A program made the translations under genes and the position numbers. A DNA stretch of 52,829 nt, taken from NCBI GenBank assembly GCA_964455185.1, contig CAYVUR010000003.1, forward strand, positions 1 through 52,829. Direction: 5' to 3'. Positions 1 through 10,682 of this stretch are shown here, piece after piece (the stretch's first letter is position 1; each line of letters opens with the position of its first letter). The notes under the pieces were generated by a model. It had not been told where the DNA came from. It worked only from the letters and a program-made list of their open reading frames with translations, and did no database searches. Source of the DNA: an uncultured Gammaproteobacteria bacterium. Its GTDB lineage: Bacteria; Patescibacteriota; Patescibacteriia; 2-01-FULL-39-33.

Positions 1-104
1 TTCTTTAACAATTTATTTTATGAGGCAGCGCATTGGGTATAAGCTTAGTTTATACTTATTGCGCTGCCTCATGGGGAGACAGCCGTTAGCCAGAACGATT
101 CTGG
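1..104 (+). ncRNA. Candidate structured 5' leader RNA, copy A (upstream part cut by window edge)
   Basis: nt 1-55 and 57-104 are identical to 4301-4355 and 4365-4412. Perfect 12-bp GC-rich stem TGAGGCAGCGCA(21-32)/TGCGCTGCCTCA(60-71) encloses GTATAA(37-42)/TTATAC(50-55). Second hairpin CCAGAA(90-95)-cga-TTCTGG(99-104). SD GGAGG at 118-122, ATG at 132. Confidence 0.6.
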
Positions 105-131
105 TAAAATAGATATAGGAGGTTAATAACA

Positions 132-1001
132 ATGAAGGACCATATTACAGAAGAGAGAAAAAAGCAAATCGAAGAAATTATAGAAAATATTGTTAATCAA
201 GAAATTAAAAGTGGTTTTTTAAATCAGGCAAGAATTGAAAAACTTCTTAAAAAGAAGGAAGAATTTGAAGATTATATTATTAATGGAATTATAAAATTTT
301 CAAACCATGATGAGTTTGAGAATGAAGAAGTAGAATCAAATTTTTCTTATCCTGAGGAATATCGAATTAAAGAAGTAGACGAGCAAGTTGAAATTTTGAA
401 ACGTTTACTTCCTCAATTATCTGATGCAACTTATGATCGTGATATTATTAAACAGCCGCTTCCAGAGGGAAGCGAAGGATGGTTTGCTATACCTAGATCA
501 AAGCTGTTGTCATCAACATATAGTAATGCTGTTGATTTAGTTCTTTCAATAATTTCCTTAGAGAGAGGTTTAATTAATTATTGTTTAGGTAAGTTCAAAA
601 TAGATTTTCTACGCCGAAACGAAAGAACAATGAAAATGCTTAAGAAAATTAGTGACAAGCAGAAACAACATCGAATCCTTATAATACCATGTCAATTTGG
701 TATTAATCATCGTGGTCGCTCGGTTCGTAGAGTACGAGAAATTTTAAAACCTAATGAATTTGGACTTGGAGTATTTGAAGTTGCTTGCCTTCTTTTAACA
801 CATCCCGAACGTGAAATCAAACAAGAACAATTACATCTTTATTGTCCGGGTGATGATTTTGCTATTATGGAAGATATTTTTTGTCATGCTTTGTCTTTTA
901 ATTTCTTAAATAATTATGGTTTCCTTAACCTTAATTACTGTTGGTATTGTTATTTTTATGAAGACTATGGTTCTGCCACTGGATTTTTTTGTCCATACTG
1001 A
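132..1001 (+). CDS. Uncharacterised protein, paralog A (289 aa)
   Basis: Long ORF with GGAGG 9 nt upstream. Shares blocks EGWFAIP, PCQFG..GRSV, EFGLG.FEVACLLLTHPERE, QLH..CPG and GSATGF with the product of 4441-5189. No family recognised. Confidence 0.8.
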   Translation: MKDHITEERKKQIEEIIENIVNQEIKSGFLNQARIEKLLKKKEEFEDYIINGIIKFSNHDEFENEEVESNFSYPEEYRIKEVDEQVEILKRLLPQLSDATYDRDIIKQPLPEGSEGWFAIPRSKLLSSTYSNAVDLVLSIISLERGLINYCLGKFKIDFLRRNERTMKMLKKISDKQKQHRILIIPCQFGINHRGRSVRRVREILKPNEFGLGVFEVACLLLTHPEREIKQEQLHLYCPGDDFAIMEDIFCHALSFNFLNNYGFLNLNYCWYCYFYEDYGSATGFFCPY

Positions 1002-1212: not shown

Positions 1213-3939
1213 ATGTCATTTTTAACTAAATTATTTGGAGATCCTAATATCAAGATAATTAAAGAATTAAAAGTAATTGTAGAAAAAATCAATGTTTTGG
1301 AAAAACAAATATCAGTTATGTCTGATGATGATTTAAGATCTCAAACTATAAAATTTAAAGAAAGATTAACTAAAGGCGAAACATTAGATGATTTATTGCC
1401 AGAAGCTTTCGCTACGGTGAGAGAGGCAGCTAAACGTGTTTTAGGTCAGCGGCATTTTGATGTTCAATTAATTGGAGGAATTGCTTTACATCGTGGACAT
1501 ATTGCTGAAATGCGTACAGGAGAAGGTAAAACTTTAACTGCCACCGCTCCATTATATCTTAACGCTCTAGTTGGCAGAGGGGTTCATTTAGTTACTGTTA
1601 ATGATTATTTATCTCGCATTCATGCTGATTGGATGGGTCGTATTTATAATTTTTTAGGCATGACAGTTGGTTGTATTCAGCAACAAAATATTTCTTATAA
1701 ATTTGATGCTAATTATACTAGAAATGAAGGAGATCCAATTTTAGATGTACAAAATTTGGTACCATGTACTCGAAAAGAAGCTTATGCTTGCGATATTTTA
1801 TATGGCACTAATAATGAATTTGGTTTTGATTATTTACGTGATAATATGGTGCAAAGATTAGAGGATGTGGTACAACGTGAACTATATTATGCTATTGTTG
1901 ATGAAGTTGATTCTATTTTAATTGATGAAGCTCGTACTCCTTTAATTATTTCTGCTCCTGACACTGAATCAACTAATAAATATATTCAATTTACTCAAAT
2001 TGTAAAACAGTTAAAATTAGAAGAAGATTATAAAGTTGATGAAAAATTACGTGCTGCTACTTTAACTGAAAGGGGAATTGCTAAAGTAGAAAAAATGTTG
2101 GGTGTGGAAAATATTTATACTGATCGTGGTATTACTGAGGTGCATCATATTGAACAAGCATTAAAAGCTCATGCTCTTTTTAAGCGTGATAAAGATTATG
2201 TAGTTAAAGATGGTGAAATTATTATCATTGATGAATTTACTGGACGTATGATGTTTGGTCGTCGTTATAGTGAAGGATTACATCAGGCTATAGAAGCTAA
2301 AGAAGGTGTTAAAATACAGAAAGAAAGTATAACTTTAGCTACTATATCATTTCAAAATTATTTTAGATTGTATGAAAAATTAGCTGGTATGACTGGTACA
2401 GCTGCTACTGAAGCAGAAGAATTTTCTAAAATTTATAATTTAGAAGTTACTACTATTCCTACTAATCGACCCATGATTAGAAAAGATTTAAATGATCGTA
2501 TTTATAAAACTGAACAAGGAAAGTTTCAGGCTTTAGTTCGTGAAGTTAAACAACGACATGAGAAAGGTCAACCAATTTTAATTGGTACAATTTCTATTGA
2601 AAAGAATGAAATTTTAGCAGAATTATTGGAACGAGAAGGAATTACTTGTCAGGTACTTAATGCTAAACATCATGATAAAGAAGCACATATAATTGCTCAA
2701 GCAGGACGTTTAGGCGCAGTTACAGTTGCTACTAATATGGCGGGGCGTGGTGTTGATATTATTTTAGGAGGTTATCCTTTTAATCAACAAGAATATGATA
2801 AAGTAGTAGCTGCTGGCGGTTTATGTGTACTTGGTACAGAACGTCATGAATCACGGCGTATTGATAATCAATTACGTGGTCGCGCTGGACGTCAAGGAGA
2901 TCCTGGTGTATCACAATTTTATATTTCTATGGATGATGATTTAATGCGTATTTTTGGTGCTGAACGTATTAAAAAAATGATGACAACTTTAGGCTTACCT
3001 GATGATATGCCAATTGAAAATCGTATGGTGTCTAAATCTGTAGAACAAGCACAGAAAAAGGTTGAAACTTATAATTTTGATATTAGAAAACATTTAGTTG
3101 AGTATGATGATGTCATGAATAAACAAAGAGAAACGATTTATCGTAAACGTAGACAATTATTAAAAGGAGAAGGAATAAAAGAAGCAGTAATAGAAGCAAT
3201 TAATAATGAAATTGATATAATTGTTGATACTTATTTAGCTAGCAATAATGAGAATGATTGGGATTTAGAACAAATATATAAAGATATTAGTGTAATTTTT
3301 CCTATTAAAGAAGAAGCAAAGAAGACTTTAACAGATTTAAAGAAGGAAGCTGGTGATCGTCAGGAAGATTTTATGGCTCGAGAAGCTATTGCTGGTTATA
3401 TTAAAAAAATAGCTATTGAAACTTATAATGATTTAGAAACTCAAATTAATTTGCTTGATGATGGTCATCAAGAATTGCCACCAATGCGTCAAGTGGAAAG
3501 AGGTATTTGTTTAAATGTAATTGATTCTTTATGGATTGAACATTTAGAAACAATGCAATATTTACGTACTAGCATTGGTTTGCGTGGTTATGGACAACGT
3601 GATCCTTTAGTTGAATATAAAAAAGAATCATTAAGAATGTTTCGTGAGTTATTAAAAATGATTGATCGTCAAATCGCTTATAGCATATATAAAATTGGTT
3701 TTGTTTCTCCTCAAGAAATAAGTTCTAAAAAACAAATAAATAATTTACAATTTTCAGGAGCTAACGAAAAATCAGCTTTTGAGGCTGATGAAGGATTAAA
3801 ACAAAGAAATTCAGATAAGATTTTACAAGATAAAAATCATTTTAATGGAGCAAGAGTGGGGCGTAATGATCCATGTCCTTGCGGCGCTACTTGGCCAGAT
3901 GGTAGTCCTAAAAAATATAAAAAATGTTGTGGAAGATAA
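1213..3939 (+). CDS. secA: Preprotein translocase ATPase SecA
   Basis: 908 aa. [12 protein letters not shown] start, motor motifs MRTGEGKTL and [29 protein letters not shown]-terminal Cys-rich Zn motif CPCG...CCG. Confidence 0.97.
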
Positions 3940-3940
3940 T

Positions 3941-4252
3941 ATGTATCAACGACCATATAATCTTAAAGAGATAAAAAAGAATTATCCTAATAAACTTAAA
4001 AAGTTATTAACAGATGAAGTTCATCTGTGGCGAGCTAAAACAGGAATTGAGTTAATACATAAAGAACCAACTTTAAAAGAACAAAAAAGAATCTGGAGAA
4101 ATTGGAAGCAAATGACAGATGAAATGAAGAAAAAAAGTGATAAAAAGAGTATTGAAATTTTTGGAAAAGATAATATAACAAATCATAAAGAAATTATGCA
4201 AAATTGGAATAAAAGTAAAAATTTTTATAAAAAGATAAATGATAAAGTATAA
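3941..4252 (+). CDS. Small Lys/Trp-rich hypothetical protein (103 aa)
   Basis: ATG at 3941 lies 1 nt after the secA stop. The track ORF start at 3845 lies inside secA. No recognised family. Confidence 0.5.
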   Translation: MYQRPYNLKEIKKNYPNKLKKLLTDEVHLWRAKTGIELIHKEPTLKEQKRIWRNWKQMTDEMKKKSDKKSIEIFGKDNITNHKEIMQNWNKSKNFYKKINDKV

Positions 4253-4260
4253 ATTATAAT

Positions 4261-4289
4261 TTGACAAAATAGTTGTTTTTTAATAAAAT
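4261..4289 (+). promoter_or_regulatory. Sigma70-type promoter driving leader copy B and paralog B
   Basis: TTGACA(4261-4266), 17-nt spacer, TAAAAT(4284-4289). Predicted TSS is near 4296, a few nt before the conserved leader begins at 4301. Confidence 0.6.
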
Positions 4290-4300
4290 ATCTACATTAG

Positions 4301-4412
4301 TTCTTTAACAATTTATTTTATGAGGCAGCGCATTGGGTATAAGCTTAGTTTATACCTTTATACCTATTGCGCTGCCTCATGGGGAGACAGCCGTTAGCCA
4401 GAACGATTCTGG
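4301..4412 (+). ncRNA. Candidate structured 5' leader RNA, copy B
   Basis: Identical to copy A except that 9 nt (4356-4364) replace A56. Stem 4321-4332/4368-4379. Inner stem GGTATAA(4336-4342)/TTATACC(4350-4356, or the duplicated 4358-4364). Hairpin CCAGAA(4398-4403)/TTCTGG(4407-4412). Confidence 0.6.
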
Positions 4413-4440
4413 AAGAAAAGTAGGTATAGGAGAGCTAATT

Positions 4441-5118
4441 ATGAGCATGAACTCTTCCGCTGCAGTTTCGAAAAGTAATTTTAATCTTCCTGTTATTAGA
4501 AGAGGAGTAGGAGTGACATATCCTAAAGGATATGTCATTAAAAGTATTGAAGAACAAGTAGCTATCTTAATGGGCTTTTTCCCTAAGGAATTAGAGGGAG
4601 CAAAATATGATAAAGATATTATTAATAATTATCAACTTCCTAATAATTCTGAGGGATGGTTTGCTATTCCTGATTGGAATAGTATAGCCTCAACCTATTT
4701 TGAAGCTACTAACAAAGTATTAACAGCAATTAGTTTTACAAGAAAATTTTGTAATCATCTTAAGGTTTTATGTGGTGAAAATCAAGTTTCAAATTTTTGT
4801 TTAAAACAAAATGATAAAACTTTACAGATGATTCAAAAAATTAAAGAGCATCAGAAAAACAATAAAATCATTGTTTTTCCTTGTCAATTTGGACGACGCT
4901 ATCAAGGTCGTTCGGTGTATTTGGTAAGAAAAACTATAGAAAACAAGAAAAAAGAATTTGGTTTAGGTTTATTTGAAGTTGCCTGTCTTCTTTTAACACA
5001 TCCTGAGAGAGAGAGAAGAGGTGGCAACAATTACATGTTGATTGTCCTGGTAGCGATGTTATTGATATCAATAATCAATTTAAAAATGCACCTTATTTTT
5101 GTTTTTATTCTCGCCTAA
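4441..5118 (+). CDS. Uncharacterised protein, paralog B; frame is lost at the (GA)6 tract, so residues after ~HPERE are out of frame
   Basis: ATG 4441 is preceded by TATAGGAG, as in copy A. Similarity to paralog A runs through LLLTHPERE (to about 5015). It then continues in another frame (5007-5189). The TTG start at 4333 used by the ORF track lies inside the leader stem. Confidence 0.6.
   Translation: MSMNSSAAVSKSNFNLPVIRRGVGVTYPKGYVIKSIEEQVAILMGFFPKELEGAKYDKDIINNYQLPNNSEGWFAIPDWNSIASTYFEATNKVLTAISFTRKFCNHLKVLCGENQVSNFCLKQNDKTLQMIQKIKEHQKNNKIIVFPCQFGRRYQGRSVYLVRKTIENKKKEFGLGLFEVACLLLTHPERERRGGNNYMLIVLVAMLLISIINLKMHLIFVFILA
5005..5016 (+). repeat. (GA)6 dinucleotide repeat at the frameshift point of paralog B
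   Basis: gagagagagaga read directly from the sequence. Removing one GA unit joins ...HPERE to KRWQQLHVDCPGSDV... in frame. Confidence 0.9.
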
Positions 5119-5189
5119 ACTTAGAGGCAACCTGGATTAAAAATTCTGATATCAAATTCGGTTCTGCTACCGGATTTCTATATGATTGA
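5007..5189 (+). pseudogene. Out-of-frame C-terminal segment of paralog B
   Basis: This frame encodes EREKRWQQLHVDCPGSDV...FGSATGFLYD*. It aligns to the paralog A C-terminus (EQLHLYCPGDDF...YGSATGFFCPY*). A stop at 5004-5006 closes this frame upstream. Confidence 0.65.
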
Positions 5190-5226
5190 ATTTTATGTTA
5201 AGTTGTTAATCTATTAACAAAGTTAT

Positions 5227-5279
5227 AAGGATTATTTACAATTACAAATTAAATTGTAAATAATCCTTTTTTATTTTTT
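5227..5279 (+). terminator. Intrinsic terminator after paralog B
   Basis: 17-bp stem AAGGATTATTTACAATT(5227-5243)/AATTGTAAATAATCCTT(5252-5268) followed by a T-run. Confidence 0.75.
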
Positions 5280-5285
5280 AAGAAT

Positions 5286-5314
5286 TTGATAGTATTGAAT
5301 ACAATTTATATAAT
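5286..5314 (+). promoter_or_regulatory. Sigma70-type promoter for mutM
   Basis: TTGATA(5286-5291), 17 nt, TATAAT(5309-5314). Confidence 0.5.
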
Positions 5315-5345
5315 TATATTATGACAAAAAGAAAAGAATAAAATT

Positions 5346-6206
5346 ATGCCAGAATTACCAGAAGTACAAACCATAGTTAATGAGCTTAATTGTAAAATTA
5401 AAGGTAAAACGATTAAATTAATTGAGGTACGCAATCCAAGTTCAGGATTGCCAACGCCTAATATTTTAATTAACAAAACTAAAGGTAAAAAAATAAAAGA
5501 AGTCAGACGTCGTGGTAAATTAATTGATATAGATTTAGATGGTAATAATAATATTTTAATTCATCTTAAAATGACAGGACAATTGGTTTATGTAGCTAAT
5601 ACTGGTAAAAAAATTTCAGGTGGTCATCCAATTATTAATATTGGTAATTTACCTAATAAATTTTCTCATGTCATTATAAATTTTACTGATGGTTCAATTT
5701 TATATTTTAATGATATTAGAAAATTTGGTTGGGTTAAGTATGTTACTAATATTGAACGAGATATTATTAAGCAAAAATATGGTTTAGAACCATTTGATAA
5801 AGAATATACTTTAGAAAATTTTACTGCAATACTTAAGCGTTATCCTAAAAGAAAAATTAAACAACTTTTAATGGATCAAGAAAAATTTTCTGGATTGGGT
5901 AATATTTATGCCGATGAATCTTTATTTGCTGCTAAAATTTTACCGATGCGTTTAGTTGGCAGTTTAAAAAAAGAAGAAATAAAATTATTATATAAAGTAA
6001 TTCCTAAAATTTTAAAATTTGCTATTAGTAAGGGTGGAACTACTGCTGACAATTATGTACGGACTGATGGTAGTAAGGGTAAAATGGTTAATTTTCTTAA
6101 AGTTTATGGACGAGAAGGAAAAAAATGTAAACGTTGTGGTAAAATTATTAGTAAGATAAAGTTAGGAGGCAGGGGGACACATTTTTGCAAATTTTGTCAA
6201 AAATAA
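5346..6206 (+). CDS. mutM: Formamidopyrimidine-DNA glycosylase (Fpg/MutM)
   Basis: MPELPEV N-terminus (catalytic Pro2/Glu3), H2TH region, C-terminal zinc finger CKRCG...CKFC. Confidence 0.93.
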   Translation: MPELPEVQTIVNELNCKIKGKTIKLIEVRNPSSGLPTPNILINKTKGKKIKEVRRRGKLIDIDLDGNNNILIHLKMTGQLVYVANTGKKISGGHPIINIGNLPNKFSHVIINFTDGSILYFNDIRKFGWVKYVTNIERDIIKQKYGLEPFDKEYTLENFTAILKRYPKRKIKQLLMDQEKFSGLGNIYADESLFAAKILPMRLVGSLKKEEIKLLYKVIPKILKFAISKGGTTADNYVRTDGSKGKMVNFLKVYGREGKKCKRCGKIISKIKLGGRGTHFCKFCQK

Positions 6207-7546: not shown

Positions 7547-8266
7547 TTATTTTTTAAAAATAATCATTTTAATTAATATTAATAGATAAGCAATAATAAT
7601 TATTATTATATCTATATATTTTTCTAAGAAAAATAATGATTGATAAATTACATCTTTTATATTAATATACTCATTATCATAAGTCATTTTTTTAGTAATG
7701 GGATATGTATTATCATTATTATAAATTTCTGATTTTCCAGGGATTCTAGTTCCAAATAATTGAACTACAATATTGGTTTTTCTATTTTCAAAAATACCTC
7801 CCAAACTAGCAATACCAATCTCTTGAAATTCTCTTCTTTCAATATTTTCTCTGTGTTTATCACTTTTTATCCAAGCATCAAATAATTCTTGACTATTAGA
7901 AAAATCTATAGCAAGATTTTCACCAGCATAAAAATATGGATAACCAGATTCTTTTATCCAATAAGAAAAACGTCGACCGTCTGGAGAGGTGTGACTAAAA
8001 TAATTTTTTTCTAAAATGTCTTTAGCTTTATTAATAGCTGCTTGAGTTAATCGGGGATTGGGTATAAGTTCATTTAAGCCATGATTTAATCTATATTGAT
8101 TAGTTAAATTTATTAATTCTTCTGCTTGGGCTCCACCATAAGGTTGTGATATTTCTATTATTGGATTATTAAATCTTTCTAAAAATAAAAATCCAGCCAA
8201 TATTATTTTAGCTATTATTAAAAATACACCGCAAAGTATTATTATTTTTTCTATTTTCTCAATCAT
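7547..8266 (-). CDS. Membrane-anchored CAP/SCP (YkwD-like) domain protein
   Basis: N-terminal TM helix, then the CAP-domain pattern YRLNHGLNEL...FSHTSPDG...GENLA. C-terminal hydrophobic tail. Confidence 0.7.
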   Translation of the reverse strand: MIEKIEKIIILCGVFLIIAKIILAGFLFLERFNNPIIEISQPYGGAQAEELINLTNQYRLNHGLNELIPNPRLTQAAINKAKDILEKNYFSHTSPDGRRFSYWIKESGYPYFYAGENLAIDFSNSQELFDAWIKSDKHRENIERREFQEIGIASLGGIFENRKTNIVVQLFGTRIPGKSEIYNNDNTYPITKKMTYDNEYINIKDVIYQSLFFLEKYIDIIIIIIAYLLILIKMIIFKK

Positions 8267-9389: not shown

Positions 9390-10682
9390 ATGTCAGAATT
9401 AAAAGAAAATAAAAAAATAAAATTTTTAAATAAACCAGTTTCTCTTTGGGTTGGTTTATTATTTGTTTTTTTAGCTTTTACTAGTGGGGTTTTAGCGGGA
9501 GGAAGTGGTCAGTTTTTAAATAATCAAATTATAATTAAAGGAGCTGATCCAGTTTACGCTACTTCAAGTTCAAGTGATAGTGGCAATGTAACTAACACTA
9601 AAGCAGAATTACCAAGTTATCTTCAAAAAGATGTTGATTTTAATCTTTATTGGAAAACTTGGAATATAATAAAAAGTAAATTTTATGATAAAAATGTTTT
9701 AGATACCAAACTTTTTTACGGGTCTTTAGCAGGATTAGTTTCTGCTTTAGGTGATCCATATTCTGTTTTTATGACTCCCAGCGATGCTGATGAATTTCAA
9801 AAAGATTTAGAAGGCAGTTTTGAGGGTGTGGGTATGGAAATAGCCATTAAAAATAACCAATTGATAGTTGTTTCGCCTTTAGAAGATTCGCCAGCTATGA
9901 AGGCTGGTTTACGTCCCAAAGATTGGATTATTAGAATAGATGGTGTTAGTACAGAGAAAATGAGTGCTGCTCAAGCTGTAAAATTAATCAGAGGACCCAA
10001 AGGAACAAAAGTCAAATTATCTATTTATAGAGAAGGAGCTAAGGATATTCAAGAAATAGAAGTTACTCGTGACGTAATTAATGTTAAAAGTTTAACTTGG
10101 GAATACAAAGCAAATGGATCAATTATTTGGATTAAAGTTAGACAATTTAATGATGATACAATTCCTTTATTTGATAAGGCAATCAAGGAAATAATTGCCA
10201 AAAAGAATGTTAAAGGTGTGATTCTTGATTTACGCAATAATCCTGGTGGTTATCTTGATACGGCTATTGCTATGGCTGGAGAATGGGATGGAGAGCAAGT
10301 TGTTGTTTCAGAAAGAAATAGAGAAGGTCAAGAGATTAAACATATTGCTAATTCTGTAGCTCGACTTAAAAATTACAAAACCGTAGTTTTAATAGATGCT
10401 GGTAGCGCTTCAGCTTCAGAAATTGTTGCAGGAGCTTTACAAGATTGGAAAAAAGCAACTATAGTTGGCATGAAATCATTTGGTAAAGGCTCAGTTCAGG
10501 ATTTAACTAATTTACCTGATGGTTCACAGATTAAATTAACTATTGCTAAATGGTTTACTCCCAATGGTCGTAGCATTGATGAACATGGCATTGAACCAGA
10601 TATTAAAGTTGATTTAACTGATGAAGATTATAATAAAGATCTTGACCCACAATTAGATAAAGCTTTAGAATTATTGAAATAG
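9390..10682 (+). CDS. Carboxy-terminal processing peptidase, family S41 (with PDZ domain)
   Basis: TM anchor, PDZ region, GVILDLRNNPGGYL, GSASASEI (Ser), FGKGSVQ (Lys). Confidence 0.9.
   Translation: MSELKENKKIKFLNKPVSLWVGLLFVFLAFTSGVLAGGSGQFLNNQIIIKGADPVYATSSSSDSGNVTNTKAELPSYLQKDVDFNLYWKTWNIIKSKFYDKNVLDTKLFYGSLAGLVSALGDPYSVFMTPSDADEFQKDLEGSFEGVGMEIAIKNNQLIVVSPLEDSPAMKAGLRPKDWIIRIDGVSTEKMSAAQAVKLIRGPKGTKVKLSIYREGAKDIQEIEVTRDVINVKSLTWEYKANGSIIWIKVRQFNDDTIPLFDKAIKEIIAKKNVKGVILDLRNNPGGYLDTAIAMAGEWDGEQVVVSERNREGQEIKHIANSVARLKNYKTVVLIDAGSASASEIVAGALQDWKKATIVGMKSFGKGSVQDLTNLPDGSQIKLTIAKWFTPNGRSIDEHGIEPDIKVDLTDEDYNKDLDPQLDKALELLK

Follow-up and report, generated by a model that had tools for sequence, protein, structure and literature searches.

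A candidate class of structured leader RNA linked to DGR variable-protein genes in CPR bacteria

Positions 4261–4443 of the window, the 52.8-kb stretch of DNA analysed here, are best explained as an intact, independently transcribed copy of a conserved, structured 5′-UTR RNA, to judge from comparative sequence evidence. The window holds two such leaders, copy A at its very start and copy B at the positions given, and the larger result is a class of leader RNA that appears not to have been described before and that, in CPR bacteria, is linked to genes for variable proteins of diversity-generating retroelements (DGRs). On balance, we think it probable that the leader is a cis-acting, two-state element of post-transcriptional control. 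No family in Rfam 15 matched it, the only hits being sub-threshold miRNA-like hairpin noise (best 30 bits against a gathering score of 90), and a literature search found no paper describing it.

Homologues were collected by iterated nhmmer searches, followed by a covariance model, over 80 genome loci with homologues of the 132–1001 product, the protein encoded downstream of copy A. A pattern scan of metagenomes was unspecific, with true motif instances at only ~10 of 120 loci. The 48 homologous leaders, from 39 of the genome loci and 9 metagenome loci, share one layout: a sigma-70 promoter, a GTTCTTTGAAA box, a hairpin of ~25 bp (P1), a single-stranded copy of the P1 5′ arm, a second, small hairpin (P2), an A-rich spacer, an SD and an ATG. 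The consensus reads AUGAGRYRAGC/GCUYRYCUCAU for the lower stem of P1, RGAGRCAAGYCGU for the linker and CCNGAGCGAUUCNGG for P2. The covariance model gave one + strand match per target gene, directly upstream of it, and two matches in each of the two-target loci L118 and L161; its only matches in the window are copies A and B. Conservation of the motif is wide, extending across CPR classes, and it concerns sequence as well as pairing in three parts: the 5′ box, the lower stem of P1 and the loop of P2 (GAGCGATTC). Some homologues that lack the leader have other hairpin leaders (L001 and L010, ~100 nt upstream of the gene; L005, at 60–200). Those of L001 and L010 contain GGGACAAGG in the 3′ arm, resembling the 5′-arm copy, and these may be diverged variants of the same element.

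The covariance analysis proposed in the preliminary description was carried out on an alignment built without reference to structure. Across P1 and P2 together, 92.1% of cells are paired and 19 of 28 pairs show compensatory changes; none of 500 shuffles attained the observed values, and slid controls reached 30–45% paired. For P1 alone, a helix of ~22–25 bp with few mismatches, the figures are 93% of cells paired (slid controls 30–51%) and compensatory changes in 9 of the 14 lower-stem pairs. Both window copies also fold far more stably than shuffled sequences (z = −6.9 and −8.0). G·U pairs on the + strand are abundant (for example GU19, UG14 and GU11), which points to a sense-strand RNA, and covariance-model scores are much higher on that strand. 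With a conserved, covarying fold on the sense strand between promoter and start codon, the leader has the attributes of a structured cis-regulatory 5′-UTR RNA. The features of the two copies and of a second RNA found in related loci are collected in Table 1.

Table 1 Features of the two leader copies in the window and LOOT RNA matches in related loci
Feature	Location	Strand	Details
Copy A leader core	1..104	+	Box 1–9 (cut by the window edge), P1 20–72, linker 73–89, P2 90–104; 84.6 bits
SD AGGAGG (117–122) and copy A gene (132–1001, 289 aa)	117..1001	+	CPR family; 3′ end is a DGR variable repeat in relatives
Copy B sigma-70-type promoter TTGACA-N17-TAAAAT	4261..4289	+	11/12; predicted TSS ~4296
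Conserved 5′-terminal box GTTCTTTAACA	4300..4310	+	Family consensus GTTCTTTGAAA; homologous leaders
Hairpin P1, copy B	4320..4380	+	Lower stem ATGAGGCAGCGC/GCGCTGCCTCAT sequence-conserved; upper stem and loop variable
Tandem TTTATACC TTTATACC, upper P1, 3′ side	4349..4364	+	8-nt duplication relative to copy A
Single-stranded linker GGGGAGACAGCCGTTAG, copy B	4381..4397	+	GAGACAGCC copies P1 5′ arm GAGGCAGCG; can pair with P1 3′ arm
Hairpin P2 CCAGAA-CGA-TTCTGG	4398..4412	+	Compensatory changes in 4/6 pairs
SD AGGAGAG (4428–4434) and ATG (4441–4443), copy B gene	4428..4443	+	From sequence
Copy B gene	4441..5188	+	Paralogue of 132–1001 without the N-terminal domain; frameshifted in the window
LOOT RNA	L002 4035–4158, L012 4020–4144, L041, L068, L025, L079, L009, L024	+	Rfam/nhmmer
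LOOT RNA	L052, L056, L053	−	Rfam/nhmmer
LOOT RNA	L161 1873–1988		Rfam/nhmmer

The case for a second state lies in the linker, whose copy of the P1 5′ arm could form an alternative (ALT) helix with the P1 3′ arm. Its pairing reaches 92.2% over 30 sequences and 90.5% over 48 (35–50% in slid controls), and 4 of its 8 pairs show compensatory changes; the counts at three of them are UA21/CG18/UG6 (60/74), GC18/GU10/AU7 (55/79) and GC23/GU5/AU3 (59/75). A one-nucleotide indel of the P1 arms is mirrored in the 5′-arm copy, and in divergent variants lacking a canonical P2 the ALT pairing also looks possible by eye. The resulting three-way pairing constraint accounts for a lower stem conserved in sequence below an upper stem free to vary. 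Closed P1 is the MFE form in every member, and ALT is predicted to be less stable by a median of 13.5 kcal/mol (range 3.3–21.7), a deficit with which it cannot compete at equilibrium; the 5′ arm would have to be blocked or removed. The capacity for ALT pairing, with its covariation, suggests a two-state element, but the likeness of the P1 5′ arm and its copy could alternatively reflect two binding sites for one factor.

The preliminary description had assigned copy B a consensus promoter and a transcript start near 4296, so that the element would form the 5′ end of the transcript, and comparison supports both assignments. The promoter at 4261–4289 has the joint best score within 3800–5400, and a sigma-70-like promoter scoring at least 9/12 (most 10–12/12), with −35 and −10 hexamers spaced by 16–18 nt, occupies the equivalent position in 41 of 49 homologous leaders. 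Sites scoring at least 11/12 number 13 in the whole window on both strands, compared with 3.6 ± 1.8 in first-order Markov simulations. Among the homologous leaders, the distance from the end of the −10 box is 5–19 nt to the GTTCTTT box and 35 nt (median) to P1. Because the promoter position is conserved, the element is likely to start at or near the transcript 5′ end; we infer the transcript start, from the −10 box, as we do the occurrence of switching. Extending the sequence upstream of window position 1, proposed as a way to find the promoter of copy A, succeeded in sister assemblies, where the order is the end of an hpf-like gene, TTTACA-N17-TAATAT and TTAG-TTCTTT. By sequence, copy A has its own promoter-like site. 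The motif GTTCTTTAA was considered as a genome-wide promoter-proximal element and rejected, as the other six sites in the window lack promoter context.

Copies A and B had been described as differing only in a tandem duplication on the 3′ side of the inner stem. The duplication is there, as TTTATACC at 4349–4356 and again at 4357–4364. The claim that nothing else differs holds as far as CTGG (104/4412), but the 27–28 nt from there to the ATG are only ~61% identical. Up to that point, copy B (4301–4412) equals copy A (1–104) apart from CTTTATACC (4356–4364) in place of a single T (T56), that is, an 8-nt duplication plus a T-to-C substitution; positions 1–55 are identical to 4301–4355, and 57–104 to 4365–4412. 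Identity is 64% upstream, with many indels, 103/104 plus the 8-nt insert in the core, 61% from P2 to the ATG, 61.5% in the coding sequence and 45–48% in the protein. The 104-nt core is thus a sharply bounded identity island in flanks that are ~62% identical. The island starts close to the predicted TSS, within ~4–12 nt ahead of the 5′ box, and ends at P2. Within it the two copies match even at loop positions that vary freely among lineages, so structural selection alone is not enough to account for their identity; candidate explanations are that the leader underwent gene conversion recently or that selection keeps both copies matched to a reader specific to this genome. Copy-to-copy identity in other genomes with two leaders is 81% (L118) and 59% (L161).

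Looking up the copy A protein led to three independent sister assemblies with 99.74% identity to the window over 11 kb. They contain the same two leader copies, which are therefore not an assembly artefact. In a sister strain (L081 9899), G30A alters the P1 5′ arm of copy A at window position 30, turning a G-C pair into an A·C mismatch, and copy B is unaltered. Ten of 12 substitutions between the window and the sister strains cluster at 1867–2934, in secA (1213–3939), and a 15-nt AT-rich segment at 7565 is present in the sister strains and missing from the window.

Within P1, the 8-nt duplication is apical, in the part of the leader whose length varies most across the family; the alignment columns holding the insert are occupied in only 3 of 48 leaders and form the length-variable tip of P1. 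GGTATAA (4336–4342) is exactly complementary to TTATACC of both repeat units, and, as had been predicted, either unit can pair with it and the helix survives: forced folds of copy B gave −42.7 kcal/mol for the first unit and −45.2 kcal/mol for the second, the latter being the MFE structure (copy A, −47.3 kcal/mol). What did not hold was a lengthening of the helix by one base pair, as the change is from a G·U pair in copy A to a G-C pair in copy B. Given an insert at the variable tip, two registers that both fold, and a covariance-model score for copy B of 77.7 bits compared with 84.6 for copy A, the duplication is, on the modelled folds, structurally neutral, as first proposed. It amounts to a natural experiment in which an 8-nt duplication is tolerated exactly where the leader family tolerates length variation.

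This structure also bears on the start of the copy B gene. Gene calls in the sister assemblies disagree, giving 284 aa from a TTG and 248 aa from an ATG. The TTG at 4333 had been judged an unlikely start, and two observations agree with that judgement: 4333–4440 is covarying RNA structure, and AGGAGAG precedes the ATG at 4441, which on sequence grounds is the better call. This ATG was said to lie at the same leader-relative position as that of copy A; the place is equivalent, but the offset differs by 1 nt (27 versus 28 nt after P2). In the window the gene is frameshifted by an extra GA at 5005–5006, within a (GA)n tract at 5000–5012. Without the extra GA, as in sister assemblies L081 and L082, the gene is intact and encodes 248 aa, ending at a site that corresponds to window position 5188; the expansion could be phase variation, strain polymorphism or an assembly error. 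The 289-aa product of 132–1001 has 819 homologues, nearly all unnamed CPR/Patescibacteria proteins without a Pfam domain, and itself had no match in Pfam, NCBIfam or PADLOC. Its AlphaFold model is mediocre (pLDDT 68.5), and a fold search of the PDB with it returned no match.

The link to DGRs comes from relatives of these genes. The last ~131 nt of the gene are repeated nearby (VR/TR), with mismatches falling at TR adenines in 26/26, 22/22 and 12/13 cases at the relatives’ loci. In L161, two adjacent leader genes end in VRs that match one TR, with 16/17 and 9/11 mismatches at TR adenines, and RT and Avd adjoin both targets. Mismatches almost only at adenines of the non-coding copy are the signature of a DGR template and variable repeat. 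Adjoining genes in relatives encode a reverse transcriptase (PF00078, E = 5e-29) and bAvd (PF22296, E = 1e-17), and the full set of a 3′ VR, differences at TR adenines and a nearby RT (and Avd) was found for the homologues in L002, L005, L009 and L161. Of the 80 loci, 25 have RT or Avd within 3 kb, as do 17 of the 39 leader loci. No RT, Avd or TR was found in the 52.8 kb or in the 10 kb upstream, so the DGR linkage of the two window genes rests on homology, by which they would be members of a DGR variable-protein family; a comparison of the sister strains revealed no differences in the VR. DGRs are common in CPR bacteria, the expression of their CPR targets is uncharacterised, and CPR (clade 2) targets lack recognisable domains (PMC8144416).

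The leader is not confined to one protein family. L118b and L161a fall into a family of ~255-aa proteins for which neither BLASTP (E > 0.2) nor hhalign (probability 1.2%) detected homology to the window family, and in the few loci seen so far the leader appears to track DGR-target status and not one protein domain. Its presence on families without detectable homology, together with a copy B protein that lacks the N-terminal domain of copy A, makes autoregulation through a shared domain unlikely. Both target families have a short motif, S..x.AREvf..N.FGlg / STSQKLAREIMGTNFFGIE, at different protein positions (residues 195–213 of the 132–1001 product; residues 56–74 of L161a and L118b). Two further observations concern the organisation of these loci. 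At L009 929–2510, L005 1500–3083 and L161 3572–5167, the bAvd gene sits between TR and RT but is encoded on the other strand, antisense to the transcript presumed to span TR and RT. Upstream of the leader promoter, a conserved block (TGTACATTAGCCTATACTCAA...) can be read as a −10 box, in divergent orientation, for the TR transcript.

In the two-state mechanism that we favour, P1 would be closed in the ground state. Sequestration or loss of its 5′ arm, through a bound factor, a helicase or a nuclease for instance, would then free the 3′ arm to re-pair with the downstream 5′-arm copy, forming a short hairpin that alters the fate of the mRNA. As to the trigger, a trans factor is a tentative candidate, processing-coupled refolding a weaker one and a small-molecule ligand a poor one. 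Several outputs of such a switch were considered and rejected. Taken by itself, copy B favours sequestration of the SD by its 5′ box or flank, but this is not a family-wide feature: duplex-energy z-scores are near 0, and the partition-function pairing of the SD with the 5′ flank is 0.28 versus 0.21 with shuffled flanks, being higher in only 15 of 35 leaders. The leader contains no intrinsic terminator, including after P1 or P2. Riboswitch-type gating of a terminator or SD was set aside on these grounds, since the ALT helix is present but neither output was detected. A conserved uORF starting from the AUG at the base of P1 was discounted, as manual reading gives ORFs of 2, 5, 25 or 31 codons among members; the frame of this AUG differs between copies A and B, and its position covaries as a base pair (GUG, CUG, UUG, ACG). 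Nor is there a conserved short ORF over the switching helix of the kind a leader-peptide attenuator would have. An IMH-adjacent hairpin for DGR target recognition was likewise rejected, as the leader lies in the 5′ UTR, ~0.75–0.9 kb upstream of the VR and not 3′ of it.

Other readings of the same element differ in what the repeated P1 strand is for. It could mark two sites, the lower stem and the single-stranded copy, for a trans-acting regulator, possibly DGR-encoded like Avd/RT or else a host RNA-binding protein, that co-regulates all DGR targets of a genome. Sequence conservation in the 5′ box, the lower stem of P1 and the loop of P2 would suit a protein-binding site, as would the identity of the window copies even at loop bases, and a leader common to target families without detectable homology fits a common trans factor. 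No candidate protein co-occurs consistently, however (only 17 of the 39 leader loci have RT or Avd within 3 kb, and the window copies have neither nearby), and the Watson-Crick and G·U covariation between the 3′ arm and the 5′-arm copy is more simply explained by pairing; we regard this reading as possible but not likely. Somewhat more doubtful is a processing-coupled refolding, in which an RNase III cut or 5′ erosion of P1 frees the 3′ arm to form, with the copy, a 5′-terminal hairpin that stabilises or activates the mRNA. At 22–25 bp with few mismatches, P1 offers about two helical turns of dsRNA, there is no junction resembling a ligand pocket, and the conservation of ALT despite its being thermodynamically uncompetitive is what would be expected if it forms only after loss of the 5′ arm. 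Against this, the idea is purely inferential, cleavage of the upper stem would leave the lower stem as a stable duplex, and the conserved 5′ box and P2 are left unexplained.

A static, non-switching role as a 5′ stabiliser or translation enhancer, with the 5′-arm copy as a remnant of duplication, seems unlikely. Long 5′ hairpins can stabilise bacterial mRNAs, and closed P1 is the MFE in every member. A remnant would not, however, keep covarying with the 3′ arm across CPR classes or mirror an indel, and the ~20–35 unpaired nt before P1 are atypical of 5′-end protection. We give even less weight to a metabolite or second-messenger riboswitch with the P1/ALT exchange as its expression platform. 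Mutually exclusive helices that share a strand are typical of such platforms, and the motif is conserved widely across CPR classes. Yet the leader has no multi-helix junction or pseudoknot with conserved unpaired bases and no obvious pocket, P1 is very stable without a ligand, neither a terminator, SD sequestration nor an Rfam match was found, and the downstream genes encode hypervariable binding proteins and not metabolic or transport functions. Least probable by far is an element acting as DNA, whether an operator or a cruciform, in transcription control or DGR homing. P1, as DNA, forms an inverted repeat with a third half-site beyond it, the GTTCTTTGAAA box falls partly within the TSS region, a frequent repressor site, and hairpins or cruciforms are known in DGR target recognition; but the + strand G·U pairs are A·C mismatches on the other strand, a variable, covarying apical stem of 30–40 nt is unlike an operator, and the element is 5′ of the gene, ~0.75–0.9 kb from the VR.

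A broader and rather speculative extension of the two-state reading is that the leader is a dedicated RNA part of CPR DGR systems: a bistable tag on all variable-protein genes of a genome, read by a DGR-linked or host factor that couples expression, or even retro-homing or gene conversion, to DGR activity. Were this so, the near-perfect identity of copies A and B from the TSS to P2 would reflect concerted evolution imposed by a shared reader. As a candidate regulatory element, the leader described here would be the first for DGR variable-protein genes, and it offers a simple nucleotide marker for DGR targets, including orphans far from any RT, and a testable two-state RNA.

Scans with Rfam brought up one further match in the window, to Rickettsia sRNA47 at 10230–10533 on the − strand (62.8 bits against a gathering score of 60). 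It lies antisense inside an S41 peptidase/CtpA-like gene (9390–10682) and probably reflects conserved coding sequence and not an sRNA.

LOOT RNA (Rfam RF03000), a CPR non-coding RNA, occurs in the same DGR loci as the leader: Rfam scans of 12 loci detected it in 7, and nhmmer detected it in 10 of 23 RT-bearing loci and 5 others. Its structure differs from that of the leader, and it usually follows the target gene at a distance of ~170–200 nt on the 3′ side. The window contains no LOOT RNA, and the genes downstream of LOOT RNA are not consistent from locus to locus; pairing between it and the leader was rejected, as they share no significant complementarity. The known cis elements of DGRs are the IMH with a hairpin or cruciform 3′ of the VR and the TR-RT spacer RNA (RT-10 motif) (PMC5737381). 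Like these, the leader is associated with DGR loci and dominated by a hairpin. Unlike them, it belongs to the target gene’s 5′ UTR and is found neither 3′ of the VR nor between TR and RT, its stem is long, imperfect and AU-containing, and it is also found on homologues without a nearby DGR cassette.

In architecture, the leader resembles riboswitch platforms and attenuators such as the ermC and trp leaders, likewise being in the 5′ UTR, at a conserved place between promoter and SD, with one strand that has two covarying partners. It departs from them in that no ligand-pocket architecture, terminator, conserved leader peptide or SD sequestration was detected, in a closed state favoured by ~13 kcal/mol, and in the genes it precedes, which encode DGR variable proteins. 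With protein-bound autoregulatory leaders, those of ribosomal-protein genes and the RNase III-processed leaders of rnc and pnp, it shares a sequence-conserved 5′-UTR stem belonging to a particular set of genes. Unlike those, it heads families without detectable homology, which makes self-binding by a shared domain appear unlikely; its long dsRNA hairpin would be a plausible RNase III substrate, as in the processed leaders.
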